The translations under genes were made by a program, and so were the position numbers. From IMG/VR virus record IMGVR_UViG_3300032132_000001, positions 362,573 through 395,473 of that record: 32,901 bases of DNA. One strand, written 5' to 3'. Below, one piece after another: positions 3,608 through 32,901 of this stretch; position 1 is the stretch's first letter; each line of letters opens with the position of its first letter. Under the pieces are notes generated by a model. It was not told where the DNA came from, ran no database searches, and saw only the letters and a program-made list of their open reading frames with translations. The stretch is from a virus.

Positions 3608-6600
3608 TTATCCCGTCACTTCCACTAGTTCCATCTCAACCTCGTCGCAAACTCCGCAATCCACGTGGAAGGCGAACGGGTCCTGTGGGAACTCGTCCCC
3701 ACAAACGAAGTTGGTCTGAAATTCGTCGATTCGTTGTTCACACCCTTCCGCCAGTATTATGTAGCCGTCATCGGTGTGTTCGATGATCTGCCTACACGTT
3801 GTAACAATGCCTCTTCTAAACACTCGTCTCCCTTCAACCCTGCCGCTGGGTGGTTCTCCCCAAACTCTAGGGTCTAGTGTGGTGACGGTTATGTCGATTC
3901 TCGATCCTGATGTTTCGAACATTCCTATGTAGATGATTCCGTAATCGTCTACAAGCTTGAACTGTCCCTGTTCTGGATACTTTTCTTCGAATTCTAGATC
4001 AATAGCTGTCTCATCGAAGCATAGCATGTTAGGTATTGTTCCGTCAACTTTCGTTGAACATGTGCCGAACTTCTCCGTCAACACCATGAACAGGTCTGTA
4101 GTGACCCGATCGCAATTGAAGTCCAGGCTGCTATCTGGGAGCCTGAACAGCTCGACGGAACACCTGTCGATGGTTGCTTCTTCTTCGCTTGGGTTCGTCG
4201 GGTCGCAGCCAAATGTCTCGCAGCCGCAATCAAGACGGTAGGGGGCGTAAAGATGTGCCCGTGGGTCGTCTTTCGCCACCAGGATGCCAGAGCCGCACTT
4301 GAAGAGAAGATCGACACCTTCGGTGCCTTCACCACCGCCTTGAGGCACACCAAGCAGCAAAGTGACATCCACATCTTCGCTCGTGCCCCGGGGATAATCA
4401 AAATCTGCAAGATCCGCCTCATAGCGCCCGGTTTCGGCCGGGTAGCCGTTGGCGAAATCGACGCCAGCGGGCTCGCTCCCGCTTTCGTCTATCGCGTCTG
4501 GCGGGCAGGCGCAGTTTTCGTTGGCCGATTCGAAGATGGGCGGCACACCACTGCCAAGACAGATAGCGTCCACATCAGTAAACACGGTCTGTTCGAACAC
4601 CACTGGATCCGTGCTGACAGCACGAGGCTCTGCAGTGGAGTAGATCGCATGGGTTACCAAGAAATCTCTGTGTGCGTGCACGCTTAGGCTGGAGATGTCT
4701 GGCACCAAGCCGTTCCCGCAATACTCAAGTGGGATGTCTTCGAAAGTGAGGAACTCGTCCCCGTCCGTCCCTTCCACGATCAAGGGGTTCAGATCCTCAA
4801 TCGTGGGCTTATCTGTTCCTATAGCTTCGGGGCATTTGTGGAAAATGTCATCCCACGGCCTATAAGAGTAGATCGATACAAAATCGTTCTCCAGCTTGTT
4901 CATGGAGACGAATCTGTGCCCTGGGAAGAAAAGGTTGTCCTTTTGAATATCGAGGGAAGGACGCCTGATCGCAAAGAACTCGTTGCTATCAACGAGGTCG
5001 TTCCTGAATTGATCTCTGTCAGTGTAGTGAAGGGTGGCTCCCTGGTAGCTCTTCACTCTTGCGAAGAGAGTATGAAGGAACGACACCCCAATGCTAGAGC
5101 GATCGCAACGATCATCTGCGAAGGTGCCGACCTGCTCTGGCACGATGGGGGTGGTATAGTACGCACCATGCCCCATGCCAAGATTGCAAGGCTTACATCT
5201 CAACAGTTCGGTTGCAATCAGGCAGCGATCGATCTCTACCGGAGTTTGAACACGACCTTTATAGCAATAATCGTCAGAGTTCCCTTGTGTAGAGCAGAGC
5301 TTAGACCTATCATCTGCGATATGGTCGAAGTCTTTCTCCCCATTGCTTATAACTCGGTCTTGGCCAGCCGGGGTGAACTCGCAGGGAGAGGCGTCCGGTC
5401 TCGGAATCGCCACATTGGAGAGAGCTTCTAGTTCCGCTCGCTGTTCTTCGGGTACCACATGGGTACCATCTAGATCTTTCCAAGTCTGGTGTTCGTTCTC
5501 CAGCCCAGCGATGATCTTGGCACGGAGGTCTAGTGTCTCCTGGCTGAACCCTCTATCATCGTCGCATTCTGTTGGGTCTAGTGGGATGATAGCGGGAGGC
5601 GTCTGTAGTTCCCCAGCATCGGTACCCGGAGCCTGCTTATTCAGACCACCCAAGCAGAAGTCTTGGACGTTGTAGACTTCGCAGCAATCTATTAGTATAA
5701 TGATCTTGCGTAGGAGAGAGTGGAACGCCTTCAATCTCAGTACGAAATCCAACAGGAATTCGTACAACTGGCTAGTTGGCTCTTCTCCCTGGACCGACAG
5801 GATCTGGATGTCGAAACGGTTAGATTGCAGGTTTTGTAGTTCAGGGGGAACGACGAGCTTGTCGTAGAGATAGGTGGCGAATATGAAGAGCTTCTGTCGC
5901 GATCGGTCGAAGTCGATGTAGTGGTCGAACGTGACCGTTATTACGTTGTTATCACTGCCGTACCTGAGACCGACTTTGTTTAGTGGCGCATCGTTTACTT
6001 GTCTGTCGTCGGTGCCTTGGCCCGATTCAAGATCGATTAAGACCTTGGAGAACCCGAGGATTGGCGGGCTGATGGAAGCGAGCGCGGGGGATAAGAGATA
6101 TCCGTCGAGGTCGAGAGCACAAACGCCCTCAACAGATTCTGGCATATCATCAACGCTGTCTGATATTGCCTGTAGCTCAGCTTCGGCCGCCGAACCGATG
6201 TCAACCAGATAGGCGTCAACAGTTACATCCGAAGTTGGCCTGAAGAGAAGCGGAACAACAATTTGTCCGAAGCCATCTTCTGAGAAATCGGAGACTAGCG
6301 GCTCTGTGCGGCACGTCTCTTCTTCGGTGATTTGGTCTTCGTTGGGCGCTTGGAACCCTGAGCCGTCTTCGTTATACCAGAGGTTCCTGATAGCAACCAT
6401 GAACCCGAAGATTTCGAACAGCTCGACCAATACCCTGCGCGAGCCCTTGAGCTGCTGCAACCGACGAGCATTTTTCAGTACGTTACGCCGGATTTCATCT
6501 GTGGACCCTGGGAAGTATGGCAACTCCCAGCCAACAAGATATGCAAGATAGGGAATAAGCTGCTGCGGGATGCGGTTGACGAAGTTGACACCTTCTAGGA

Positions 6601-7360
6601 GGTTCTGTTCGTCGTGGATGTCCTGCAGGAGATCGGCAAAGGGTCGTAGAAACTTGACATATGGGTCATCGTCAAGTGCAACCTGTCCGTCGAAGTAGAT
6701 GGACGGAGTGTTAGAAAAAAGAGCCTGGTGGACCTCACCAGGGTGAGCATGAATCAGATCGTATCTAGCTAGAGCTTCACGAGTCGCGTCGATGCATAGG
6801 AGTTCTTGATCTGCGGTGACCAGACGTGGGTTGTACGATGCTTGCCATACGAACTTGTAACGTCCAAACGGCTTCAGATCGGCTGTGTCGATAGCGAATA
6901 TTGATAGGTCATAATAGTCGGCGTCTGGATGGTATACAATCCGATCTCTAGCTCCAGGCCCGTCTAGCATCCCTCGTTCAAGAGTGTACTCGAAGAAGTC
7001 CCCGTCTACCGCGTCGAAGAAATCCTTCTCCTCTCCGGTTTCCTGGTCGAAGAATATCTGCCCTTCAAGTGGGATAGCTGTCCTGCTCAGTTCTAGATCA
7101 GAAACGGTGACGACAAAGCGCTCAAGGTCCGGTACGAAGATGCCCTTATTCTGGAAACCAGCAACTGGCACCAACCCTGGCGCATCTTCAATGAAGTATC
7201 GGAGATCGAACACACCGGAGTTTGCTACCGGAGCGTCGTTTATCCTAACCCATGGAACTACTAGGACGATAGGGAGATTAACTGGTTGCAAGCCTGTCCT
7301 ATTATTTTGAATAGGCCATCTTACAAATTCTGGTTGGAATCGATCGGTTATTTCAGCCAT
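3608..7360 (-). CDS. large virion structural protein (1250 aa) with P2 gpI-like baseplate/tail domain; Cys-rich C-terminal region
   Basis: Segment LIPYLAYLVGWELPYFPGSTDEIRRNVLKNARRLQQLKGSRRVLVELFEIFGF matches the conserved core of phage tail protein I (P2 gpI, baseplate wedge) family; size comparable to T4 gp7-class wedge proteins. Confidence 0.55.
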   Translation of the reverse strand: MAEITDRFQPEFVRWPIQNNRTGLQPVNLPIVLVVPWVRINDAPVANSGVFDLRYFIEDAPGLVPVAGFQNKGIFVPDLERFVVTVSDLELSRTAIPLEGQIFFDQETGEEKDFFDAVDGDFFEYTLERGMLDGPGARDRIVYHPDADYYDLSIFAIDTADLKPFGRYKFVWQASYNPRLVTADQELLCIDATREALARYDLIHAHPGEVHQALFSNTPSIYFDGQVALDDDPYVKFLRPFADLLQDIHDEQNLLEGVNFVNRIPQQLIPYLAYLVGWELPYFPGSTDEIRRNVLKNARRLQQLKGSRRVLVELFEIFGFMVAIRNLWYNEDGSGFQAPNEDQITEEETCRTEPLVSDFSEDGFGQIVVPLLFRPTSDVTVDAYLVDIGSAAEAELQAISDSVDDMPESVEGVCALDLDGYLLSPALASISPPILGFSKVLIDLESGQGTDDRQVNDAPLNKVGLRYGSDNNVITVTFDHYIDFDRSRQKLFIFATYLYDKLVVPPELQNLQSNRFDIQILSVQGEEPTSQLYEFLLDFVLRLKAFHSLLRKIIILIDCCEVYNVQDFCLGGLNKQAPGTDAGELQTPPAIIPLDPTECDDDRGFSQETLDLRAKIIAGLENEHQTWKDLDGTHVVPEEQRAELEALSNVAIPRPDASPCEFTPAGQDRVISNGEKDFDHIADDRSKLCSTQGNSDDYCYKGRVQTPVEIDRCLIATELLRCKPCNLGMGHGAYYTTPIVPEQVGTFADDRCDRSSIGVSFLHTLFARVKSYQGATLHYTDRDQFRNDLVDSNEFFAIRRPSLDIQKDNLFFPGHRFVSMNKLENDFVSIYSYRPWDDIFHKCPEAIGTDKPTIEDLNPLIVEGTDGDEFLTFEDIPLEYCGNGLVPDISSLSVHAHRDFLVTHAIYSTAEPRAVSTDPVVFEQTVFTDVDAICLGSGVPPIFESANENCACPPDAIDESGSEPAGVDFANGYPAETGRYEADLADFDYPRGTSEDVDVTLLLGVPQGGGEGTEGVDLLFKCGSGILVAKDDPRAHLYAPYRLDCGCETFGCDPTNPSEEEATIDRCSVELFRLPDSSLDFNCDRVTTDLFMVLTEKFGTCSTKVDGTIPNMLCFDETAIDLEFEEKYPEQGQFKLVDDYGIIYIGMFETSGSRIDITVTTLDPRVWGEPPSGRVEGRRVFRRGIVTTCRQIIEHTDDGYIILAEGCEQRIDEFQTNFVCGDEFPQDPFAFHVDCGVCDEVEMELVEVTG

Positions 7361-7369
7361 AGCATCTTT

Positions 7370-7972
7370 ATGTATCTGAGTCGCATGAAGCCATCACAAC
7401 GTGCACGTGAGATTTTACGAGCGGAAGCACAAGCTATCCTTAATGTACCTTTGTCGGATGAGTTCGACAAAGTGGTTAACTTGATAGCTCGCATGGGCCA
7501 TAGAAAAGTACTTCTCACAGGCATGGGTAAAGCCGGGAATATCGCAAGGAAGGTCACTGGAACTCTCTGTTCCACCGGAACCCCAGCCTGCTTCCTTCAC
7601 CCTGGAGAAGCGGCTCACGGCGATCTCGGGCTTGTCTCTCCAGGCGACCTGCTGCTGGCCTTCTCGACCAGCGGGAAAACTCGCGAAGTACTGGAGACGA
7701 TCCAGCTCGCCCGCCGTCTGGGTGCTTCAACGGTGGTCGCCGTCACTTCACATCCAGACGCGCCTATCCGAAACCTAGCCGACTATGTTCTAGAGCTAGG
7801 AGAGATAGAGGAGCCGTGCTATCTTGGTCTAACGCCCACGGCAAGTACGACAGCTATGCTTGCGCTCGGAGACGCCCTCGCCCTTTGCATAATGGGCAAG
7901 AATAATATCAGCAAAGAGGACTATGGGCTTCGTCACCATGGTGGTTACCTAGGCGAAATAGCCAGAGAGTGA
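7370..7972 (+). CDS. kdsD: SIS-domain sugar-phosphate isomerase, KdsD/KpsF (arabinose-5-phosphate isomerase)-like, lacking CBS domains
   Basis: [37 protein letters not shown]...[11 protein letters not shown] is near-identical in pattern to E. coli KdsD SIS domain ([37 protein letters not shown]...ISNSGES). Start chosen at first ATG (7370; alt 7385) rather than TTG7286, which would overlap divergent gene. Confidence 0.75.
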   Translation: [200 protein letters not shown]

Positions 7973-10051: not shown

Positions 10052-10408
10052 ATGGGTACAGGATGGTATACCGGACGGTTTCAACCGCTACACGCAGGTC
10101 ACATCAAGTGCATCAGGTATATCCTAGAAAAGGAAGACCGATGCATCGTGATTCTACGGGACACTGATCAGAGCGAGCGAAACCCTTTCGGAGTGGACGA
10201 ACGCAGAACCATGCTAGAGAAGGAGTTCTACCAAGAACTCCAGGATGGTAGAGTGATCGTCATCGACTCTCCAGACCCAGACTGCGACCTGACGGTCTAC
10301 ATCGGACGCCAGGTAGGATACGACCTCATCCAGCTGGATGCGGCTACTGAGGCCATCTCAGCTACAAATATCAGAAAGAAGCTATACGGAGAAGAAGATG
10401 GCAGTTGA
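10052..10408 (+). CDS. nucleotidyltransferase of the (H/T)xGH superfamily, archaeal/NadM-type NMN adenylyltransferase-like (short, 118 aa)
   Basis: GRFQPLHAGH (HxGH motif) , RNPFGVDER, and ISATNIRKKL (ISxTxIR motif) match M. jannaschii NMNAT pattern GRFQPFHKGH/ENPFTAGER/SGTEIRRRM; SD GGAGGTG upstream. Confidence 0.7.
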   Translation: MGTGWYTGRFQPLHAGHIKCIRYILEKEDRCIVILRDTDQSERNPFGVDERRTMLEKEFYQELQDGRVIVIDSPDPDCDLTVYIGRQVGYDLIQLDAATEAISATNIRKKLYGEEDGS

Positions 10409-13460: not shown

Positions 13461-13877
13461 TCACCATGTCCGTCCGATAGTGAGATGATACTTGGTCTTT
13501 GGTGTCTCATCGAGACCAAGCTCTATTCTTATCTCAGCAAGTCGGTCAGAGAAACAGTCAACGAAATAGTAGCTATCAGGTCGGTCCCAGCCGGTCGTAT
13601 CCCCGGCCTGGCGGATCAAATACTTGTATTCGAAGGTTATGATCTCGCCGTCGTGCTTCTTCCACGCTTCAAGATTAGGCGGTTCGATCCCGCGCACAAC
13701 CGAGAGGTGGGCGCCCCACGAGGGTTTGTGGAGCTTTACTTCTTGGTGGATCAAGATTTGGTGGCGGAAATAACGGCAGAGATCCTCACAGGTCTCCAGC
13801 ACAAGCCACCATGGATTATTGGATTTTAGGCCCGGTCGTTCCGGGTTATAGACGAGTTTTCCGCTGCACCGTAACAT
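13461..13877 (-). CDS. 2H phosphoesterase superfamily protein (LigT/CPDase/Acb1-like), 138 aa
   Basis: Two H-x-[ST]-x motifs flanked by hydrophobics: AHLSVVRG (~aa 57) and YHLTIGR (~aa 131), ~74 aa apart, the hallmark of 2H phosphoesterases. Confidence 0.6.
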   Translation of the reverse strand: MLRCSGKLVYNPERPGLKSNNPWWLVLETCEDLCRYFRHQILIHQEVKLHKPSWGAHLSVVRGIEPPNLEAWKKHDGEIITFEYKYLIRQAGDTTGWDRPDSYYFVDCFSDRLAEIRIELGLDETPKTKYHLTIGRTW

Positions 13878-14334: not shown

Positions 14335-14757
14335 TTATCCCTTTAGGTATTCTAATGCTCGCCTGTAGTTTCCTTCTGTCATACAGACGACTGGGTCGAT
14401 TTCTACGAAATTGTCCATTTTGTAAAGAGGTAGGTCATCTAGAATAGTATACTTCACGTCTGGATGAAGCTCTAGCCATTCGCAGATATCGGCCTCCCTA
14501 CGTGCGTTGGGAGATAGTTCATATGAAGTCCATTCTTCATGTAGAAGAATCTCTAGATCTATCCCGTTTTTCTGGAACAGATCAATTACTACATCTTTCC
14601 CGCAACCGACCCATGTACTAGAGACGACAACCTTAGCTCCCGATTCCTCGATCAGGCAAAGAAGAGCCGACTTTGCTTCTGGGACGAAGATCTGGCTGCT
14701 TGGATCAGCAGCAGAAATGAGTACTCCGTCGATGTCGAGGAATATTACTTTGTCCAT
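14335..14757 (-). CDS. HAD-superfamily phosphatase (140 aa)
   Basis: Motif I IFLDIDGVL (DxDGV), motif II VVVSSTW, motif IV ILDDL. Start at ATG14757 (TGATG overlap with upstream gene); track ORF starts further upstream. Confidence 0.7.
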   Translation of the reverse strand: MDKVIFLDIDGVLISAADPSSQIFVPEAKSALLCLIEESGAKVVVSSTWVGCGKDVVIDLFQKNGIDLEILLHEEWTSYELSPNARREADICEWLELHPDVKYTILDDLPLYKMDNFVEIDPVVCMTEGNYRRALEYLKG

Positions 14758-15065
14758 CAGATTCCAAAGGTCCAAACCATAGCAGTGGCCCAAGCAAGAG
14801 TGCCAGCCACTATGAAAATGGCGATGATCAATAGCCCGTAAGCGAACAACAACCCCAAGCAGGAGTGCAGGGTCATAGCGAGCGCGAACAACATGCCACG
14901 CCATCCATCGTTCTCAATGGACTTGAGCGACATTTGAAGTAAGCCGAATTCATCGTCTGGGCCTTCTCCCAAAAGCACAGTGCGCCAAGCATCTATCGCT
15001 TTTGGGAGAAGTATGATGTAGCTCACGGCAACCATGAAGACTGCCCAGTCAGCCCAGGTGGTCAC
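14757..15065 (-). CDS. small integral membrane protein (3 predicted TM)
   Basis: Hydrophobic segments AVFMVAVSYIILL, LFALAMTLHSCLGLLFAYGLLIIAIFIVAGTLAWATAMVW. Confidence 0.5.
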   Translation of the reverse strand: MTTWADWAVFMVAVSYIILLPKAIDAWRTVLLGEGPDDEFGLLQMSLKSIENDGWRGMLFALAMTLHSCLGLLFAYGLLIIAIFIVAGTLAWATAMVWTFGI

Positions 15066-17468: not shown

Positions 17469-17966
17469 TTAGTCCTCTTCAGCTAGATCCTCATACACCT
17501 CATCGAGGATTTCGGCGAACTGGTATAGTTCGTGATGGATCGCTTTGCGCGGACTCACGTCGCTCCAGCGCTCCAACGCCCAGAAGAAGGGGCGCAGCAG
17601 GATCGGCGTGCGGCAGATCCAGTCTGCGTACTTCCGCAGTGCGTTGGCGGTCAGGCTCACGTCGAGGATCTCCTCAGCGGTGTCCTCACCATAGAACTGG
17701 ACCAATCCGTCGATCAGATTGATTACCGAGATCTCGGCAAGCTGCTGCTTGCCTACGATACCATCCGTCATGAGCTTGACAGCCGCAGGCGCGACCACAT
17801 TACTCATCAATTCTGCAAGGGCCAGGTTCTCATCCTGGTCCAGAAAAGGTGCCGGCTTGCTGCTCTGGTGATGCTTGAACAGCGTGGTTGCGCTGTGTTG
17901 GAACAGCGTGGTGGCAACCGGACGTCGAATCAGGGCGTCTGCCAAGTTCTTTGGTGTGATTCTCAT
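17469..17966 (-). CDS. hypothetical protein (165 aa); weak resemblance to all-alpha MazG-like NTP pyrophosphatase
   Basis: ATGA overlap with purA/purZ-like stop and TAA-ATG abutment with helicase: operonic. Segment AEEILDVSLTANALRKY loosely resembles MazG E-x-x-D helix (EELGDVLFxL). Weak. Confidence 0.4.
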   Translation of the reverse strand: MRITPKNLADALIRRPVATTLFQHSATTLFKHHQSSKPAPFLDQDENLALAELMSNVVAPAAVKLMTDGIVGKQQLAEISVINLIDGLVQFYGEDTAEEILDVSLTANALRKYADWICRTPILLRPFFWALERWSDVSPRKAIHHELYQFAEILDEVYEDLAEED

Positions 17967-19108
17967 GTAAGTTCCATTACGTGGTGCATACTGTCGGGAC
18001 CAGTCCCGACCACAGTCACCGGGATTCCGGCGTCATCTTCCACCTTCTTGATGAAATCAGTCACCTTGGTCGATAACCTGCCGGGATCGTTGGTGCCATA
18101 GCAATCCCAATCGAGGTAGTTTGCGAAGTTGAGCGCGATCTTAGTCGCTCCCGTCACCATCACGGCGTATTGGAGCTGCGTGGCGGAGTAGGAGAACACG
18201 CGTCGCAGACGTTTGGTCACCGTGGTGAGTTCGCCCTTCGCGACGAGCGGCGGCGCTCCTGCTTCCCGCGTCACCTGTTCCCAGGTGATCTCATTCTGGT
18301 GAGGGTAGCAATCACCGGAGTATCCGACCGTCTTCCCGTCTTCCATTACGTTACCCACGCGGATGGGGAAGGGACGGATTACCATGTAGATGTCGCCAGC
18401 CCACTGGTGCGGTACACCCATGTCGGCCATCATCTGCATCGGAGTGCACTCTCGCGAGGTGCACTGTGGGTAGTGTGACCCGTGGTTGACTCCGAGGCTG
18501 AATCCCTGGCTCCCTTCATGCAACCAGGTGTACTCATTTTTCATCATGAGTATAACCTGTTCACTGAAGAGTGGGTAGACATCACCCTGAGCATCTTGAT
18601 TGGTCACTACACCCCAATCCAACATGTCACGGGCAAGCTTTACTTCAGCACCACGCATCAGCTTCTCAGCCTGTACCGCACCAGATCCCTGCATCGTACT
18701 AGCGATGTGCTTGGTATCGGTGCGCTCCATCTTCGCGTGATCTTCGGTGACGATCATCGCTCTCGGATGGATGTGTACTTTCTTACTTGTGGGGAGTTCG
18801 TCCGAGATGTAGTCACACTCTCGGAGTTCCTGCATTAGGCGTTCCACGGTGAACCCGGCACCAGCGCCGATGTAACACCTCATATCGTAGCCTAGCTTGT
18901 TGAGAATACAGCTGGCAGGAATCACCTTAGAAATGAACTTATATTCTTTGCCATTGACGTTACAGATGGCGGTGTGCCCTGCATTTGGTAGATTGGTCGT
19001 AGAAGCACACTTTACTCCATACTTCCATGCCAAGAATGTGGCGATGTTCCCTTTGCCAGTGCTACCCCACTGACCGTCAATTACTAGATTGAATTTACCT
19101 GCTTGCAT
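17963..19108 (-). CDS. purA: adenylosuccinate synthetase family protein (PurA homologue) with variant P-loop GSTGKGN; PurZ-like (2-aminoadenine pathway) candidate
   Basis: [21 protein letters not shown] vs E. coli [46 protein letters not shown] vs [31 protein letters not shown] vs ATTGRRRRTGW; ISTGPD-like VVGTGPD. Start at ATG19108 with perfect SD AAGGAG 6 nt upstream (track start 19150). Confidence 0.8.
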   Translation of the reverse strand: [381 protein letters not shown]

Positions 19109-19287
19109 GAACGGCTCCTTGTGTAGGTCCGTTTCAAATACTGCTGTCATAGTGGACCGGGCAGGATTTGCACCTTGCGTCTCTGTCTCCAGCGCTTTCC
19201 TTCTCGATAACCATAGGTGGGTTATAAGTTCCCCATCGTTCCAGGGGCTCCCACCCTTAGGGTCGCTAAGCTACCGGCCCAAATATA

Positions 19288-25683: not shown

Positions 25684-26324
25684 TATCGTCTCCAGAGGTG
25701 CTTGTGCATCGCTCCCATGGCAATGGGAACCGACTCAGGTTCATAGATGGCACTAAGGAAAGTCTTCATCCCGGTAACCATCATATCCTGGCAATCCATC
25801 AGTTGAGCCACACTTTCAATCAGATGCTCTACAAGATGTGGGTTACTGAGAGGGATGACGACTGATTCGCCTAGGAGGTCTGGTTCTCTATTGTCTCCAC
25901 GGCAGTGCTCCATGATCTCCATCATCTGGAAGATGCCAGGGCCACTGAGGTACAAGACAGCAGATCTTTCTGTGACGCTATTCTCTGCAGGATCTGGGTC
26001 TTCGACGTTTAGGTGGATGTGGGCTTCTAGGACGAGAGTCTCATCCTTTCGGTGGACCGTCACTCCCTTCGCCCATGATGCAGTGGGCTCTCGGAATTCG
26101 ATATCATCTCGCCAGTTGGTAAGTTCTGTTTTGAGATGTTCAAGTTCCTTTTCAAGCTCAGGCGGTGGTCCGATAACACCAACGATGGTGATGTCGTCGG
26201 GATCCAAGGCCAATGACATGCAGGCATATTCATAGAAGTTCTTTAGTGCTTCCTCACTAGAGCTGGCTTCTACGTGTTCTACTGCATTTCGATGAGATCG
26301 ATAATTGATCTTATATTGGGGCAT
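25683..26324 (-). CDS. hypothetical protein (213 aa)
   Basis: ORF. Confidence 0.45.
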   Translation of the reverse strand: MPQYKINYRSHRNAVEHVEASSSEEALKNFYEYACMSLALDPDDITIVGVIGPPPELEKELEHLKTELTNWRDDIEFREPTASWAKGVTVHRKDETLVLEAHIHLNVEDPDPAENSVTERSAVLYLSGPGIFQMMEIMEHCRGDNREPDLLGESVVIPLSNPHLVEHLIESVAQLMDCQDMMVTGMKTFLSAIYEPESVPIAMGAMHKHLWRR

Positions 26325-27157
26325 TATACCATCTTGAGGAAATCGTCGGGGCTGATGAGCTTCACCCCGTATGACCGTGCCTTATTGGCTTTGCTAGAAG
26401 TGCTGGTAGGATCGAGGATGATGAGGTAGTGGAGGTCCTTGCTGACACTCGACTTCACCTCTCCACCGTGCTGCTCGATCACGTCCGAGAGCCTGACACC
26501 GTTGTGGTTGCGAAGCCCAGTCATTGCGAAAGATTTACCAGCAAGAGGACCTTGCTGGATGAAGTCCATCACGTTGACCACCTTGGCGATTTTGTCCACC
26601 ATCGCCTGGCGTCGGTCTAGCCCTGCGCGGATCGCTTTAGCCTTCGTCTTGATGCCCTGGATGGAGGCGATGTCAGAGGTGGAGGATGCCATCACTGCGT
26701 CGAGTGTGCCAAACTCCTTGGCCAGCTTCTTGCCGTTGGTGCGTCCCAGGCCGATGAGGTTGAGGCCGGTGAGGAACGTCGCCAGCTTCATCTTCTTGGT
26801 TGCTTGGACGTTGTTGTACAGCTTGTCGCCGTTCTTCTGCGAGTTGCACGCCTTGGCGAAGATGTCAGCTGTCGCGGTGTACAGCCCGGCAGGGGTAGTG
26901 ATGCCCTCGGTGATCAGGCCCCGGACGACCCGCTGGCCCAGGCCCCGGATCTCGTGCGCCCGTACCCAATTCATGATGAGCCCGAAGGTCGCACCGGAGC
27001 AGTCCAGGTTGGGGCAGATGAGGTGGCGGGACTTGGTGCCGTCCACGTTCACCTCAAATTCTAGCCTAGTCTTGCAGTTGGGGCATTTGCCACTGAACCC
27101 GATATTGGGCACCTTTTTCTTCCCGCAGGTGCAGACAGGTACGGTTGCAGTTGTCAT
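26324..27157 (-). CDS. NAD-dependent DNA ligase (LigA) C-terminal module only: Zn-finger + HhH + BRCT, no adenylation/OB domains
   Basis: CPNCKTRLEFEVNVDGTKSRHLICPNLDC (Cys4 Zn finger), IMNWVRAHEIRGLGQRVVRGLITEGITTPAGLYTATADIF and LATFLTGLNLIGLGRTNGKKLAKEFGTLDAV (HhH repeats), LAGKSFAMTGLRNHNGVRLSDVIEQHGGEVKSSVSKDLHYLII (BRCT) align with E. coli LigA residues ~400-671. Confidence 0.8.
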   Translation of the reverse strand: MTTATVPVCTCGKKKVPNIGFSGKCPNCKTRLEFEVNVDGTKSRHLICPNLDCSGATFGLIMNWVRAHEIRGLGQRVVRGLITEGITTPAGLYTATADIFAKACNSQKNGDKLYNNVQATKKMKLATFLTGLNLIGLGRTNGKKLAKEFGTLDAVMASSTSDIASIQGIKTKAKAIRAGLDRRQAMVDKIAKVVNVMDFIQQGPLAGKSFAMTGLRNHNGVRLSDVIEQHGGEVKSSVSKDLHYLIILDPTSTSSKANKARSYGVKLISPDDFLKMV

Positions 27158-30743: not shown

Positions 30744-31123
30744 TAATTTTCTACCGTGACTATCGTTCCGCCTTTCACTACCACGCGGAATCCATTACCA
30801 GAGGGGAATTTGCCGTCTGACCCCAACTGTTCATACACTTCCTTGATTTTATCGGTGAGGATCTTGCTCCTTACTTCTTGGAGATCGAGCCCTTCGACCC
30901 GTACCAGATATCGGAGGATAGCGTGTTCTGAGATGACGAGGCCCTTAGCTTGCCTCTTTAGTGTCTCGATCTGCTTCTTGGTCTTCTCTAGCTCTGCTGC
31001 TTTCTCTCGGAGCGCTCGTTCCTTCTCGTTCAGCGCCCTCTTCTGCTCCTTTACTTCGGTCTCTGCCTCCCTTTTGCGAACTTCTAGTCTCTTCAATCGT
31101 GCTGCCCTGTCTCGGTCGCTCAT
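30743..31123 (-). CDS. coiled-coil protein (K/E/R-rich N-terminal 60 aa)
   Basis: MSDRDRAARLKRLEVRKREAETEVKEQKRALNEKERALREKAAELEKTKKQIETLKRQ; SD AAGGA upstream. Confidence 0.5.
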   Translation of the reverse strand: MSDRDRAARLKRLEVRKREAETEVKEQKRALNEKERALREKAAELEKTKKQIETLKRQAKGLVISEHAILRYLVRVEGLDLQEVRSKILTDKIKEVYEQLGSDGKFPSGNGFRVVVKGGTIVTVEN

Positions 31124-31382
31124 CGGAGCATCCTTCTAGCTGGATTAGCTTGGCATTTGCGGCTTCGTATTTCTCCTTCCATTCCCAGCATTCCGTTGCG
31201 AGTTTCTCACAACGCCATTCCAGGTCTATTAGTCGGCGAACCTGCTCGCTCTCTTCTTGTGCGAGCCTCACATACCACTCAAGCCGATTGATGTGGTCAG
31301 ATAATTCGTCTAGCCGGTCTTGGCTAACGGCAACGGTTGTTGGCTTTGTCGGATTTTCCATAGGATCGCGTGCCATACCCAT
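30945..31382 (-). CDS. hypothetical protein; C-terminal 60 aa overlap the coiled-coil gene in another frame
   Basis: N-terminal 88 aa look protein-like (W/C-containing), remainder is low-complexity mirror of overlapping frame. Confidence 0.35.
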   Translation of the reverse strand: MGMARDPMENPTKPTTVAVSQDRLDELSDHINRLEWYVRLAQEESEQVRRLIDLEWRCEKLATECWEWKEKYEAANAKLIQLEGCSDERPRQGSTIEETRSSQKGGRDRSKGAEEGAEREGTSAPRESSRAREDQEADRDTKEAS

Positions 31383-31427
31383 GCGGGAGGGGTAAACTCG
31401 CAGCGTTTACAGTATTCTTCGATTCGT

Positions 31428-32495
31428 TTATCGGCCGAACCATTTGTTAAAGATTCTGTCGTATGTCCCATTTTCTTCGATCTCCAGTAGTGCAAGATTG
31501 ATCCGTTCGCGGAGATCGGAGCCGTTTGGCATCATCATTCCATAGTACTCATAGTGGAAGATCTCCCCGATTTGGATCACTTTGCCGGAAGGGTTGTTGT
31601 TGACGTAGTAGTCAATGGAGGGTACGTCGAAGACTACAGCCTCGACTTTCCCTAGCTCAAGAAGCGCGTACGCCTCTTCGATTTTGGCGACTTCCATCAG
31701 GTGCCCGCCATACTCGCGTACGGCTTTAGCGCTTGTGGTGCCTGCCTTGGTTGCAACGAGAGCGCCCTTTAGGTCCTTGGGCGACTTGATCTTGTAATTG
31801 ACCTTGCTAACTGTGTAGTCGGCGCTTAGTTTGGCAATGAAGAGGCCAAAGACGATGATGCCGACTATGATGAGTAGCGATGTGCAGAATTTACCGAGTG
31901 GTTTCTTTGGTGTGATGTCACCATAACCCACGGTAGATGATGTCACGATGCAGAAGTAGATGGCTTGCCATATGCCAACTGTATACTGGTCGTCAATTGC
32001 ATTCTCGCCACGCTCCGAGAAGTACATGATGTGAGCTACCAGTAAGATAAAACCGATGAAGAGCAGTAATGGTTCAATGTAATTCCAATACTGTATTTCT
32101 TGGTTCGGCTCTTTCTTCTGCACCAGGATCCTCAACCCTGCATCCAGGTATCTGTGGGAGAAATCGTAATCTTTCTCTCTTTCCCCATTGATGGTGATCC
32201 CAGCAACAGCTAGTTGACCATCAATCCCATTGACTTTGTTGAATATGTCTTTGAAATTCTGAGCTTCCACATATTCAAACTCGATACCAGCCTGTTTGGC
32301 TACAGCTTCCCAGATGTCGATATCGAATCCGGTGTACTTGCCGTCGATCTTCATCACGCAAGGCTTGAACTCGTGCACCACGACCTTGACTGGATCAGCG
32401 CACGCATCCACTGCGAAGAAGAGAAAGAAGGCGATCAGGACGATAATCAACACAGCCCTAATTTGCCCAGCTACCTCAGTGATTTTAGGTTCCAT
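31428..32495 (-). CDS. GluR0-type prokaryotic ionotropic glutamate-receptor-like, ligand-gated potassium channel (SBP lobe S1 - M1 - pore TVGYGD - M2 - SBP lobe S2)
   Basis: Exact K+ selectivity filter TSSTVGYGDITP preceded by pore helix IWQAIYFCIV and flanked by TM helices LLLFIGFILLVAHIMYF and LIIVGIIVFGLFIA; N- and C-terminal regions have family-3 periplasmic solute-binding fold features (KVVVHEFKP..GFDIDIW; ALVATKAGTTSAKAV); signal peptide; SD AAGGAAAGG. Confidence 0.8.
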   Translation of the reverse strand: MEPKITEVAGQIRAVLIIVLIAFFLFFAVDACADPVKVVVHEFKPCVMKIDGKYTGFDIDIWEAVAKQAGIEFEYVEAQNFKDIFNKVNGIDGQLAVAGITINGEREKDYDFSHRYLDAGLRILVQKKEPNQEIQYWNYIEPLLLFIGFILLVAHIMYFSERGENAIDDQYTVGIWQAIYFCIVTSSTVGYGDITPKKPLGKFCTSLLIIVGIIVFGLFIAKLSADYTVSKVNYKIKSPKDLKGALVATKAGTTSAKAVREYGGHLMEVAKIEEAYALLELGKVEAVVFDVPSIDYYVNNNPSGKVIQIGEIFHYEYYGMMMPNGSDLRERINLALLEIEENGTYDRIFNKWFGR

Positions 32496-32571
32496 GCCTT
32501 TCCTTACCCAGCCTTATCTTACCAGGCCGCACCCTTGCACACCCTAGAATGCCATACCCTGATCTATAGAA

Positions 32572-32598
32572 ATGGGCCGCCCAAGAAGGGCGACCCAT
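32572..32598 (-). terminator. hairpin ATGGGCCGCCC-aagaa-GGGCGACCCAT (10/11 bp) downstream of partial gene
   Basis: Inverted repeat in 127-nt intergenic region; followed by TTCTATAG on minus strand. Confidence 0.35.
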
Positions 32599-32616
32599 TA
32601 TACTCAACGTGCCACG
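32597..32616 (-). promoter_or_regulatory. 20-nt motif CGTGGCACGTTGAGTATAAT (minus strand), copy 2
   Basis: Contains perfect TATAAT; ~100 nt upstream of GluR0-like gene start. Confidence 0.3.
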
Positions 32617-32622
32617 AGATGG

Positions 32623-32901
32623 CTAGCTAGCGTTGTTAGCAGCCATGAGCTTGTTCAGCTCGTCATCGACGGCCACGTCGTCCGTGCTGTATTTCTCTTC
32701 CAGCGACGAGGACGCAGAGCCGGCCAGCTCTTCGAACGCTTCGGCTTCAGCTTCGTCCGACTCCACCGCGCGCTGGAGGTCGTCCAGCGCGGCGAGGGGG
32801 CTTCCGCCCGTGCCGAAGTCCGACGTCGCCTTGGCGAGGTTGGTGCGAATCTGAGCGCTCGCAGAACGAGCCTTCAGCTGCGCGTGATTGCTCTTCGCCG
32901 C
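32623..32901 (-). CDS. 3' portion of a gene continuing beyond window end; Ala/Glu-rich, coiled-coil-like C-terminus ...DDELNKLMAANNAS*
   Basis: Minus-strand frame open from 32901 to TAG at 32623-32625. Confidence 0.5.
   Translation of the reverse strand, partial: AAKSNHAQLKARSASAQIRTNLAKATSDFGTGGSPLAALDDLQRAVESDEAEAEAFEELAGSASSSLEEKYSTDDVAVDDELNKLMAANNAS

Follow-up and report, generated by a model that had tools for sequence, protein, structure and literature searches.

A GluR0-type channel gene at the end of a conserved PspA cassette in a putative huge phage

Why would a bacteriophage carry a relative of the animal glutamate receptors? This question is raised by a stretch of 32,901 nucleotides from IMG/VR virus record IMGVR_UViG_3300032132_000001 (positions 362,573 to 395,473; hereafter the window), which encodes on its minus strand a 355-residue protein with a K+-channel pore module inserted into an amino-acid-binding domain. 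GluR0-type channels are prokaryotic relatives of the animal glutamate receptors whose physiology is only beginning to be defined (PMC13099474). An earlier reading of the window (the original prediction) had assigned the protein to this type. Here, we find that it is by sequence a new, divergent member of the known GluR0-type family and that its gene stands last in a conserved gene cassette around the membrane-stress protein PspA. With a probability of roughly 0.7, we conclude that the open reading frame (ORF) encodes a genuine GluR0-type channel subunit, that it belongs to a huge, as yet uncultivated phage whose contig measures 397 kb or more, and that the subunit acts within the PspA cassette in a membrane- and K+-related role.

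Architecture and fold of the channel subunit

The ORF starts with ATG and occupies exactly 31428..32495 of the window in the ORF list. Its parts follow the order signal peptide, first ligand-binding half (S1), first transmembrane helix (M1), pore loop (P), second transmembrane helix (M2) and second ligand-binding half (S2):

31428..32495, minus strand: complete coding sequence of the GluR0-type channel subunit, stop codon at 31428-31430 (Pfam, PDB, AlphaFold2 and Foldseek)
32498..32506, minus strand: Shine-Dalgarno-like AAGGAAAGG, 2-3 nt 5' of the ATG, read from the sequence
32397..32495, minus strand: predicted Sec signal peptide, aa 1-33, from the sequence, with a hydropathy peak of 2.89 over residues 4-40
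32103..32396, minus strand: S1 half of the ligand-binding domain, aa 34-131 (Lig_chan-Glu_bd at 42-128; alignments to 2pyy, 8hnj and 1ggg)
32013..32102, minus strand: M1 transmembrane helix, aa 132-161 (AlphaFold2 helix 132-161; hydropathy 136-162; Ion_trans_2 and Lig_chan)
31917..31985, minus strand: pore helix, aa 171-186, and filter TVGYGD, aa 188-193 (sequence, homologue conservation and pore-region alignment)
31800..31901, minus strand: M2 inner helix, aa 199-232, with the conserved G212 (AlphaFold2 helix 199-232; hydropathy 198-229)
31431..31799, minus strand: S2 half of the ligand-binding domain, aa 233-355 (residues 236-353 match the Nostoc GluR0 core with 103 bits)

Four Pfam families match the ORF, all above their curated gathering cut-offs. 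SBP_bac_3 (4e-29), the family 3 solute-binding protein (SBP) domain, gives a single interrupted match across residues 41-354, while Ion_trans_2 (1.2e-16, residues 146-224), Lig_chan (2.2e-08, residues 135-244) and Lig_chan-Glu_bd (7.4e-08, residues 42-128) cover parts of it. The Ion_trans_2 and Lig_chan matches are nested within the SBP_bac_3 span, which places an M1-P-M2 insert between S1 and S2. Hydropathy analysis yielded three hydrophobic segments in total, at residues 4-40 (signal peptide), 136-162 (M1) and 198-229 (M2). No such segment follows residue 229, so that the protein ends with S2 and has no third transmembrane helix, and within its 355 residues there is no amino-terminal domain. 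The predicted signal peptide consists of an n-region with K4 and R13, an h-region from A14 to V29 and the motif A31-C32-A33|D34, at which cleavage would occur; classical signal peptides also begin the other phage copies. The filter TVGYGD lies at nt 31917-31934 (reverse complement ACC GTG GGT TAT GGT GAC).

Structural comparisons are in good agreement with this layout. The best PDB sequence match was 2pyy, the ligand-binding core of a Nostoc punctiforme GluR0 homologue (5.5e-44, in two pieces), followed by glutamine-binding proteins and then by full-length alignments to GluA1/2/4 and GluD1; Synechocystis GluR0 itself (1ii5/1iit) matched at 3.2e-13. Phmmer matches to AMPA-type receptors cover residues 51-353. 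An AlphaFold2 model built from 43 homologues reached a mean predicted local distance difference test score (pLDDT) of 91.3 with helices at 132-161, 171-186 and 199-232, and Foldseek aligned about 365 columns of it to the ligand-binding and transmembrane domains (LBD-TMD) of AMPA-receptor chains (E about 1e-24).

Conservation among the 43 homologues follows both the pore and the binding site. Filter residues T188, V189, G190, G192 and D193 and the M2 glycine G212 are nearly invariant. In the ligand-binding halves, R106/E107 are invariant or nearly so, T254/S255 nearly invariant and D290 invariant. R106 aligns with the arginine of the DERK motif of the glutamine-binding protein (GlnBP) and D290 with the aspartate of its HDTP motif. 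From established structures of GlnBP and ionotropic glutamate receptors (iGluR), we take these to be the positions of the α-carboxylate-binding arginine and the α-amino-binding aspartate, respectively.

Taken together, the protein shows the split SBP domain, the M1-P-M2 insert, the TVGYGD filter, the contact residues and the absence of both an amino-terminal domain and a third transmembrane helix that characterize the GluR0 type. Eukaryote-type iGluRs differ, as here there is neither an amino-terminal domain nor a fourth membrane helix (M4), a K+ filter is present and only the LBD-TMD core aligns. Minimal Kcv-like channels, which are stand-alone M1-P-M2 modules of about 80-230 aa, differ as well, since the pore is embedded in a 355-aa SBP protein. 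The agreement of the channel features is far beyond chance expectation. The original prediction had named the exact filter, a pore helix with two flanking transmembrane helices, their insertion between the halves of a family 3 SBP domain, a leading signal peptide and thus the S1-M1-P-M2-S2 architecture of GluR0. The filter was recovered at residues 188-193, the helices by hydropathy and AlphaFold2 alike, the insertion by the SBP_bac_3 match split around Ion_trans_2 and Lig_chan, and the S1-M1-P-M2-S2 architecture by the concurrence of Pfam, the 2pyy and 1ii5 matches, AlphaFold2 and Foldseek; a leading signal peptide is predicted from its n-h-c organization with A-C-A|D and its strong hydropathy peak. 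The profile searches it had proposed found SBP_bac_3, Ion_trans_2 and Lig_chan, and the proposed structure prediction gave a confident model with AMPA-receptor LBD-TMD matches, next to the GluR0 structures matched by sequence. The SBP fold, whose absence around the pore would have refuted the prediction by its own account, is present.

Regulatory signals around the gene are less distinct. The pspA-channel spacer holds one weak promoter candidate:

32597..32625, minus strand: sigma-70-like match TAGCCA-17-TATAAT, 10/12 consensus positions

Promoter matches near the gene numbered 3 compared with 1.9 +/- 1.5 in shuffled sequence, and neither the promoter nor the terminator scan rose above chance. 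Downstream of the channel gene, the source gene caller left 304 bp (31124-31427) uncalled; the stretch has no Rfam match and no convincing terminator. A 145-aa alternative ORF (30945-31382, minus strand) overlaps it and clashes with a called 126-aa gene.

The PspA cassette and its phage setting

The extended locus (L001), which reaches 10 kb beyond the right edge of the window, shows the channel gene to be the terminal gene of a conserved co-directional cassette, DUF350-A-B-C-PspA-channel. The original prediction missed this arrangement because the cassette lies mostly beyond that edge; a synteny test against the ORFs of the window found only the channel shared, and its repeat against L001 uncovered the cassette. 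Its members are:

L001 6156-7079: DUF350 protein of about 305 aa with eight transmembrane helices and two DUF350 repeats (DUF350, 5.8e-50)
Protein A, 184-366 aa: secreted and membrane-anchored, with a signal peptide, a Ser/Arg-rich spacer, a conserved C-terminal region and a transmembrane anchor
Protein B, about 220 aa: acidic and cytoplasmic, no Pfam family
Protein C, about 150 aa: DUF2170/CesT-like chaperone fold, encoded immediately 5' of pspA, no Pfam domain
L001 9202-9873: PspA/IM30, about 222 aa (PspA_IM30, 7.8e-22)
Window 32623..32901, minus strand: 3' part of the PspA/IM30 gene (about residues 132-223), cut by the window edge, full gene in L001
Channel, 333-376 aa across cassettes and 355 aa here: GluR0-type

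PspA is an ESCRT-III-type membrane-stabilising protein. The phage PspA profile matches full-length PspA/Vipp1 structures over residues 3-220 (3e-28), and a window ORF at 32623-32766 reproduces the PspA C-terminus; a BLASTP comparison of phage PspA with E. coli YjfJ found no similarity. Families B and C are rare: in a set of 5.8 billion proteins, they number 18 and 23, respectively. Searches for protein B found no Pfam, PDB or wider homologues beyond its 18 metagenome proteins.

A profile scan of IMG/VR yielded eight viral contigs with a GluR0-type gene, 100-548 kb in length. Thus, the search for homologues in phage metagenomes suggested by the original prediction was successful, although single-protein IMG/VR scans with the channel and with the tail protein described below returned nothing and profile-based scans alone gave matches. 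The synteny A-B-(C)-PspA-channel is found on the source contig, on six of the IMG/VR contigs (L002-L005, L007 and L008) and on L012, L014, L099 and L101, with a weak cassette match on L006; the DUF350 gene is present in L001, L002 and L014. The same string also surrounds the channel homologues P0065 (114-kb contig), P0087 (up to 338 kb), P0112 and P0158 (212 kb).

Using a PspA profile, we further scanned metagenome contigs from JGI and obtained 41 loci with a near-universal A-B-C-PspA order. Eighteen loci, in which the sequence continues for 1300 nt or more past pspA, were informative for the position that follows. A GluR0-type gene lies directly downstream of pspA in 15 of these 18, with TVGYGD in 11; the gap between the pspA stop codon and the start of the linked channel gene is mostly no more than 70 nt and in two cases 500-950 nt. 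The position after pspA is kept across phages of 32 to 48% GC whose proteins are only 24-55% identical. Between the phage channel copies L004 and L005, the ratio of nonsynonymous to synonymous substitution rates (dN/dS) is about 0.13, which indicates purifying selection.

This linkage appears to be specific to the viral genes. Within 6 kb of 82 bacterial GluR0-type loci from many phyla, no PspA, A, B, C or DUF350 was found (0/82), and the PspA/DUF350 linkage, which cellular loci lack, is together with purifying selection a strong genomic clue to function. On a 4.8-Mb bacterial chromosome contig (L098, 5445-8777), DUF350-A-B occurs without PspA, divergent to a six-transmembrane, voltage-sensor-type K+ channel with the filter TIGYGD. 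The presence of the trio beside a different type of K+ channel is an independent hint that it works with K+ channels.

Two further observations concern the surroundings of the cassette. In one locus (L122, 5911-8604), an 897-aa Cas3-type helicase-nuclease (Cas3_HD, Cas3-like_C_2) replaces the channel after pspA. In several contigs, a classical AAA ATPase (PF00004) of about 480-540 aa is encoded a few kb from the cassette (L001 1-683; L014 1-111; L099 13354-14787; L004 18654-20261). By analogy, its proximity to PspA recalls ESCRT-III and Vps4, with a linkage that is loose.

The protein occurs in exactly the same form on contigs of 397,419 bp (JGI, Logan, ENA) and 176,964 bp (Logan), with the same neighbours on both. 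For the GC content, GC at third codon positions and synonymous-codon fit of its gene, values lie within the spread of 39 other window genes, which argues against a chimeric assembly or recent capture. The window is dominated by ORFans, densely packed and mostly on one strand; searches for tRNA genes and Rfam families within it found none. Its phage-type genes include a helicase, a thymidylate kinase (Tmk) and a dUTPase/dCTP-deaminase, and two further genes are most telling:

3608..7360, minus strand: 1250-aa protein with the phage baseplate/tail domain Tail_P2_I (PF09684, 8.6e-08, 32.6 bits compared with a cut-off of 20.6)
17963..19150, minus strand: PurZ-type adenylosuccinate-synthetase homologue (phrog_1211, 5e-59)

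PurZ belongs to the phage-specific 2-aminoadenine pathway and is, to our knowledge, an enzyme known from phages alone. In the protein encoded here, GSTGKG replaces the GDEGKG of E. coli PurA, and tblastn ranks the purZ phages of Vibrio, Acinetobacter and Arthrobacter highest. On a phage contig of 397 kb or more, the presence of purZ is suggestive of a huge genome with Z substitution. Host contamination, which the original prediction had named as a risk, is contradicted by the identical context in independent assemblies, the codon fit and the phage-type flanking genes. Its hint at a cyanobacterial-type host did not hold up. The nearest cellular relatives (40-45% identity) come from uncultured bacteria outside the cyanobacteria, and members of the family are spread over many phyla; a cyanobacterial host was rejected on these grounds and because the K+ filter is missing from the Nostoc homologues, whose aligned identity is only about 34%.

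Several other genes of the window and its relatives were noted. A 165-aa ORF without Pfam match (17469-17966) adjoins the PurZ-type gene. The NAD-dependent DNA ligase is apparently split into halves about 12 kb apart, and two domains of a "Swiss Army Knife" RNA-repair type are encoded as small separate genes, a HAD domain and a 2H phosphoesterase whose match is weak and below the Pfam cut-off:

26324-27157, minus strand: HhH/BRCT half of the NAD-dependent ligase, inside the window; the adenylation/OB half lies outside, at L001 1973-3103
10959-11831, minus strand: 290-aa DNA polymerase of family X (Pol beta-like) whose domains are thumb, palm and HhH_8
13461-13877 and 14335-14904, both minus strand: the RNA-repair pair
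7286-7972 and 10052-10408, both plus strand, with L011 8335-9294 and 9326-9523: sugar/envelope-type genes (an NAD-epimerase, a SIS/arabinose-5-phosphate-isomerase-like gene and a weak CTP-transferase-like match) and, just left of the window, a 65-aa Hc1 gene (chlamydial histone H1-like)

RtcB ligases are found on the related cassette-bearing contigs L006 and L014, one of them with HNH and intein-like inserts.

Proposed role and alternative explanations

The most likely role of the channel is phage-directed regulation of inner-membrane integrity and of K+ and osmotic homeostasis during the long infection of a huge phage, tuned by an external amino acid. In the mechanism we propose, the signal peptide would export the subunit and the two-lobed amino-acid-binding domain would reside in the periplasm. 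M1, M2 and the re-entrant loop of the pore would be embedded in the inner membrane of the host, oriented as in the inverted Synechocystis GluR0. A K+-selective pore lined by TVGYGD would arise from four such subunits and would open once an α-amino acid is bound between the lobes (Arg106, Thr254/Ser255 and Asp290). K+ would then follow its electrochemical gradient, in an energised cell mainly inward, and the flux would alter membrane potential, turgor and cytoplasmic K+. Its most plausible partners are PspA, which would seal and remodel the membrane, the chaperone-like C, DUF350, A and B, and jointly they would hold the inner membrane energised and K+ and turgor balanced. Purifying selection combined with the PspA/DUF350 linkage points to a part in the homeostasis of membrane and ions when the envelope is stressed. 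Based on the intact channel gene and its conserved last place in the PspA cassette, such phages probably control the ion balance of the host membrane, and probably do so in response to amino acid outside the cell.

A broader interpretation, which we put forward only tentatively, is that the cassette is a self-contained sensory and effector module which huge phages direct at the host envelope, where the GluR0-type receptor-channel reports the outside chemistry and drives a PspA/ESCRT-III-like system with DUF350, A, B and the CesT-like chaperone. Signals might be amino acids released from lysing neighbours or nutrient status, transmission might occur via K+ flux or direct contact, and the outcome might be an energised membrane or the timing of lysis or superinfection responses. 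If true, no ligand-gated ion-channel signalling system would have been described in a bacteriophage before, and the module would join iGluR-type receptors to ESCRT-III-type membrane remodelling in a natural and portable form.

Several results weigh against the proposed homeostatic role or the phage assignment, and they concern the contig, the cassette and the pore. With regard to the contig, about 53 kb of readable sequence contained no capsid, portal or terminase gene, megablast of 25 kb of the window and tblastn of the tail protein found no match among 50,697 GenBank phage records, and P0033, a homologue on a bacterial-looking contig, falls inside the phage channel clade of a neighbour-joining tree. 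By a search with an exact 43-mer of the channel gene, which had no match, the source contig is itself absent from IMG/VR. This absence and the first two of the results above would fit a cellular fragment, a megaplasmid or another large extrachromosomal element on which the channel is an ordinary bacterial GluR0 homologue. We regard this as improbable in view of the Tail_P2_I domain above its Pfam cut-off, the PurZ-type enzyme with its best matches in purZ phages, the dense same-strand packing of mostly ORFans with phage-type nucleotide and RNA-repair genes, and the lack of detected tRNA or rRNA genes; further, the eight cassette-bearing relatives are classed as viral in IMG/VR and the cassette is absent from all 82 bacterial GluR0-type loci. 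If the contig is a phage, the gene might still be a recently captured host passenger (moron) without a dedicated phage role, as phages often acquire host transport genes (PMC6163359) and the closest homologues include cellular proteins at 40-45% identity. Such a history is very unlikely for a gene whose best non-self database match is only 45% identical, whose codon usage is adapted to that of the phage, and which is under purifying selection and retains its place after pspA in such divergent phages. We give hardly any credence to a third origin, the substrate-binding component of an ATP-binding cassette (ABC) importer serving as an auxiliary metabolic gene for amino-acid uptake. The strongest NCBIfam similarity is indeed to GlnH (6e-48), in two GlnH-like halves, and homologues in JGI data carry the name "ABC-type amino acid transport substrate-binding protein". 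However, the GlnH model NF007029 scores 163.7 bits compared with a cut-off of 303, its match is split by a channel insert of about 100 residues and the neighbourhood contains no permease or ATPase genes.

With regard to the cassette, the channel is missing in 3 of the 18 informative PspA loci, no ATP-grasp or spermidine-synthase gene lies within 10 kb, where the bacterial CesT/Tir-PspA operons discussed below have them, and hhalign found no similarity of C to E. coli YjfI or of B to YjfK. Because of the latter result, the link between C and the YjfI family is one of fold. With regard to the pore, the neighbour-joining tree clusters most filter-bearing phage copies, including that of the window, with a bootstrap of only 41%, while L006 and a pore-less clade sit outside this main group. 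The pore-less subclade (L007 10010-11071; L008 9905-10906; L099 10026-11075; bootstrap 100/100) has lost the pore loop, the filter and the Ion_trans_2 match but keeps SBP_bac_3, Lig_chan-Glu_bd, two transmembrane helices, the ligand-contact residues and the position after pspA, and its copies are under purifying selection with a dN/dS of about 0.15. Thus, conduction is not indispensable to every version of the cassette, and the function for which the cassette keeps this protein may lie in the sensing of a ligand or in membrane anchoring instead of K+ conduction. These copies favour the view that the protein is mainly a periplasmic amino-acid sensor or a membrane anchor for PspA/DUF350 which passes ligand occupancy to its partners, with conduction dispensable or vestigial. 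We nevertheless consider this view unlikely for the protein of the window, as the pore helix, TVGYGD and G212 are intact here and in most phage copies, although free to decay if unused, as the filter is kept in 11 of the 15 linked metagenome copies, and as the bacterial DUF350-A-B locus is also paired with a K+ channel, albeit of another type. The pore-less variants are natural, built-in controls by which sensing could be told apart from conduction.

Relation to known systems

What is new here is the viral carriage of a GluR0-type channel and its fixed partnership with a PspA module. Tblastn against the GenBank phage records found no GluR0-type gene (SBP-only matches) and, with PspA and protein B as queries, no match at all, and the literature searched held no report of a GluR0/iGluR-type channel in phages or of this cassette. 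PspA in huge phages is mentioned in the literature only beside terD genes in Jug phages. In the virus structure database BFVD, the only full-length structural match was E3T502 of Cafeteria roenbergensis virus (CroV; 7e-22), whereas phage proteins gave SBP-only or small-channel matches, the latter covering about 80-108 columns. The expectation of the original prediction that a GluR0-type channel would be unusual in a phage is therefore well borne out by the phage records, BFVD and the searched literature. The gene would represent a new class of phage host-takeover gene, and the six genes form a compact, tractable set for studying how PspA-type systems may relate to K+ flux, a connection earlier suggested only from bacterial operon structure.

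The bacterial counterparts of the cassette are the CesT/Tir-PspA operons of the YjfI-YjfJ type, which hold DUF350/YjfL and a K+ channel (Ravi et al. 2024, PMC11237479). Common to both are PspA, a small CesT/DUF2170-fold protein encoded 5' of it, a DUF350 membrane protein and a K+ channel, and the C-PspA pair therefore corresponds to the "CesT/Tir-PspA dyad" of that study. The sensor of the phage channel is a predicted periplasmic SBP domain; for the channel of the bacterial operons, sensing of a ligand inside the cell has been described (PMC11237479). In addition, phage proteins A and B belong to no Pfam family and the cassette is virus-borne.

Viral K+ channels had been described by the original prediction as known mainly from algal viruses, which needs correction: small channels with two transmembrane helices are already known from several phages, while glutamate-receptor-like proteins were found in chloroviruses only (2018 survey, PMC6163359). 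Chlorovirus Kcv and A162L, the small phage channels and CroV E3T502 share with the protein described here a virus-encoded pore module with a K+ signature, and in the chlorovirus and CroV proteins a ligand-binding domain is likewise combined with the pore. The known phage channels are minimal pores of 119-228 aa without a ligand domain (PMC6163359), and the viral glutamate-receptor-like proteins come from viruses of eukaryotes, have three transmembrane helices and match eukaryotic receptors weakly. Compared with AMPA/kainate-type iGluRs (GluA2, PDB 5l1b), the LBD-TMD core fold is common at an identity of about 20%, whereas the amino-terminal domain, M4 and the C-terminal tail are absent and the TVGYGD of a K+-selective type stands in place of a non-selective cation pore.

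The closest relationship is to the cyanobacterial receptors. Synechocystis GluR0 has been shown to reside in the plasma membrane in an inverted topology, to enable E. coli to take up K+ and to buffer the volume of the cell during KCl stress (PMC13099474). With Synechocystis GluR0 (slr1257) and Nostoc GluR0, the window protein, whose signal peptide is predicted, shares the order S1-M1-P-M2-S2 without an amino-terminal domain or a fourth transmembrane helix, family 3 SBP lobes with Arg, Thr-Ser and Asp amino-acid contacts and, as a further likeness, a filter with the K+ signature, the latter not extending to the Nostoc homologues. In contrast to its cyanobacterial relatives, it is encoded by a phage and fixed in position downstream of a pspA cassette.

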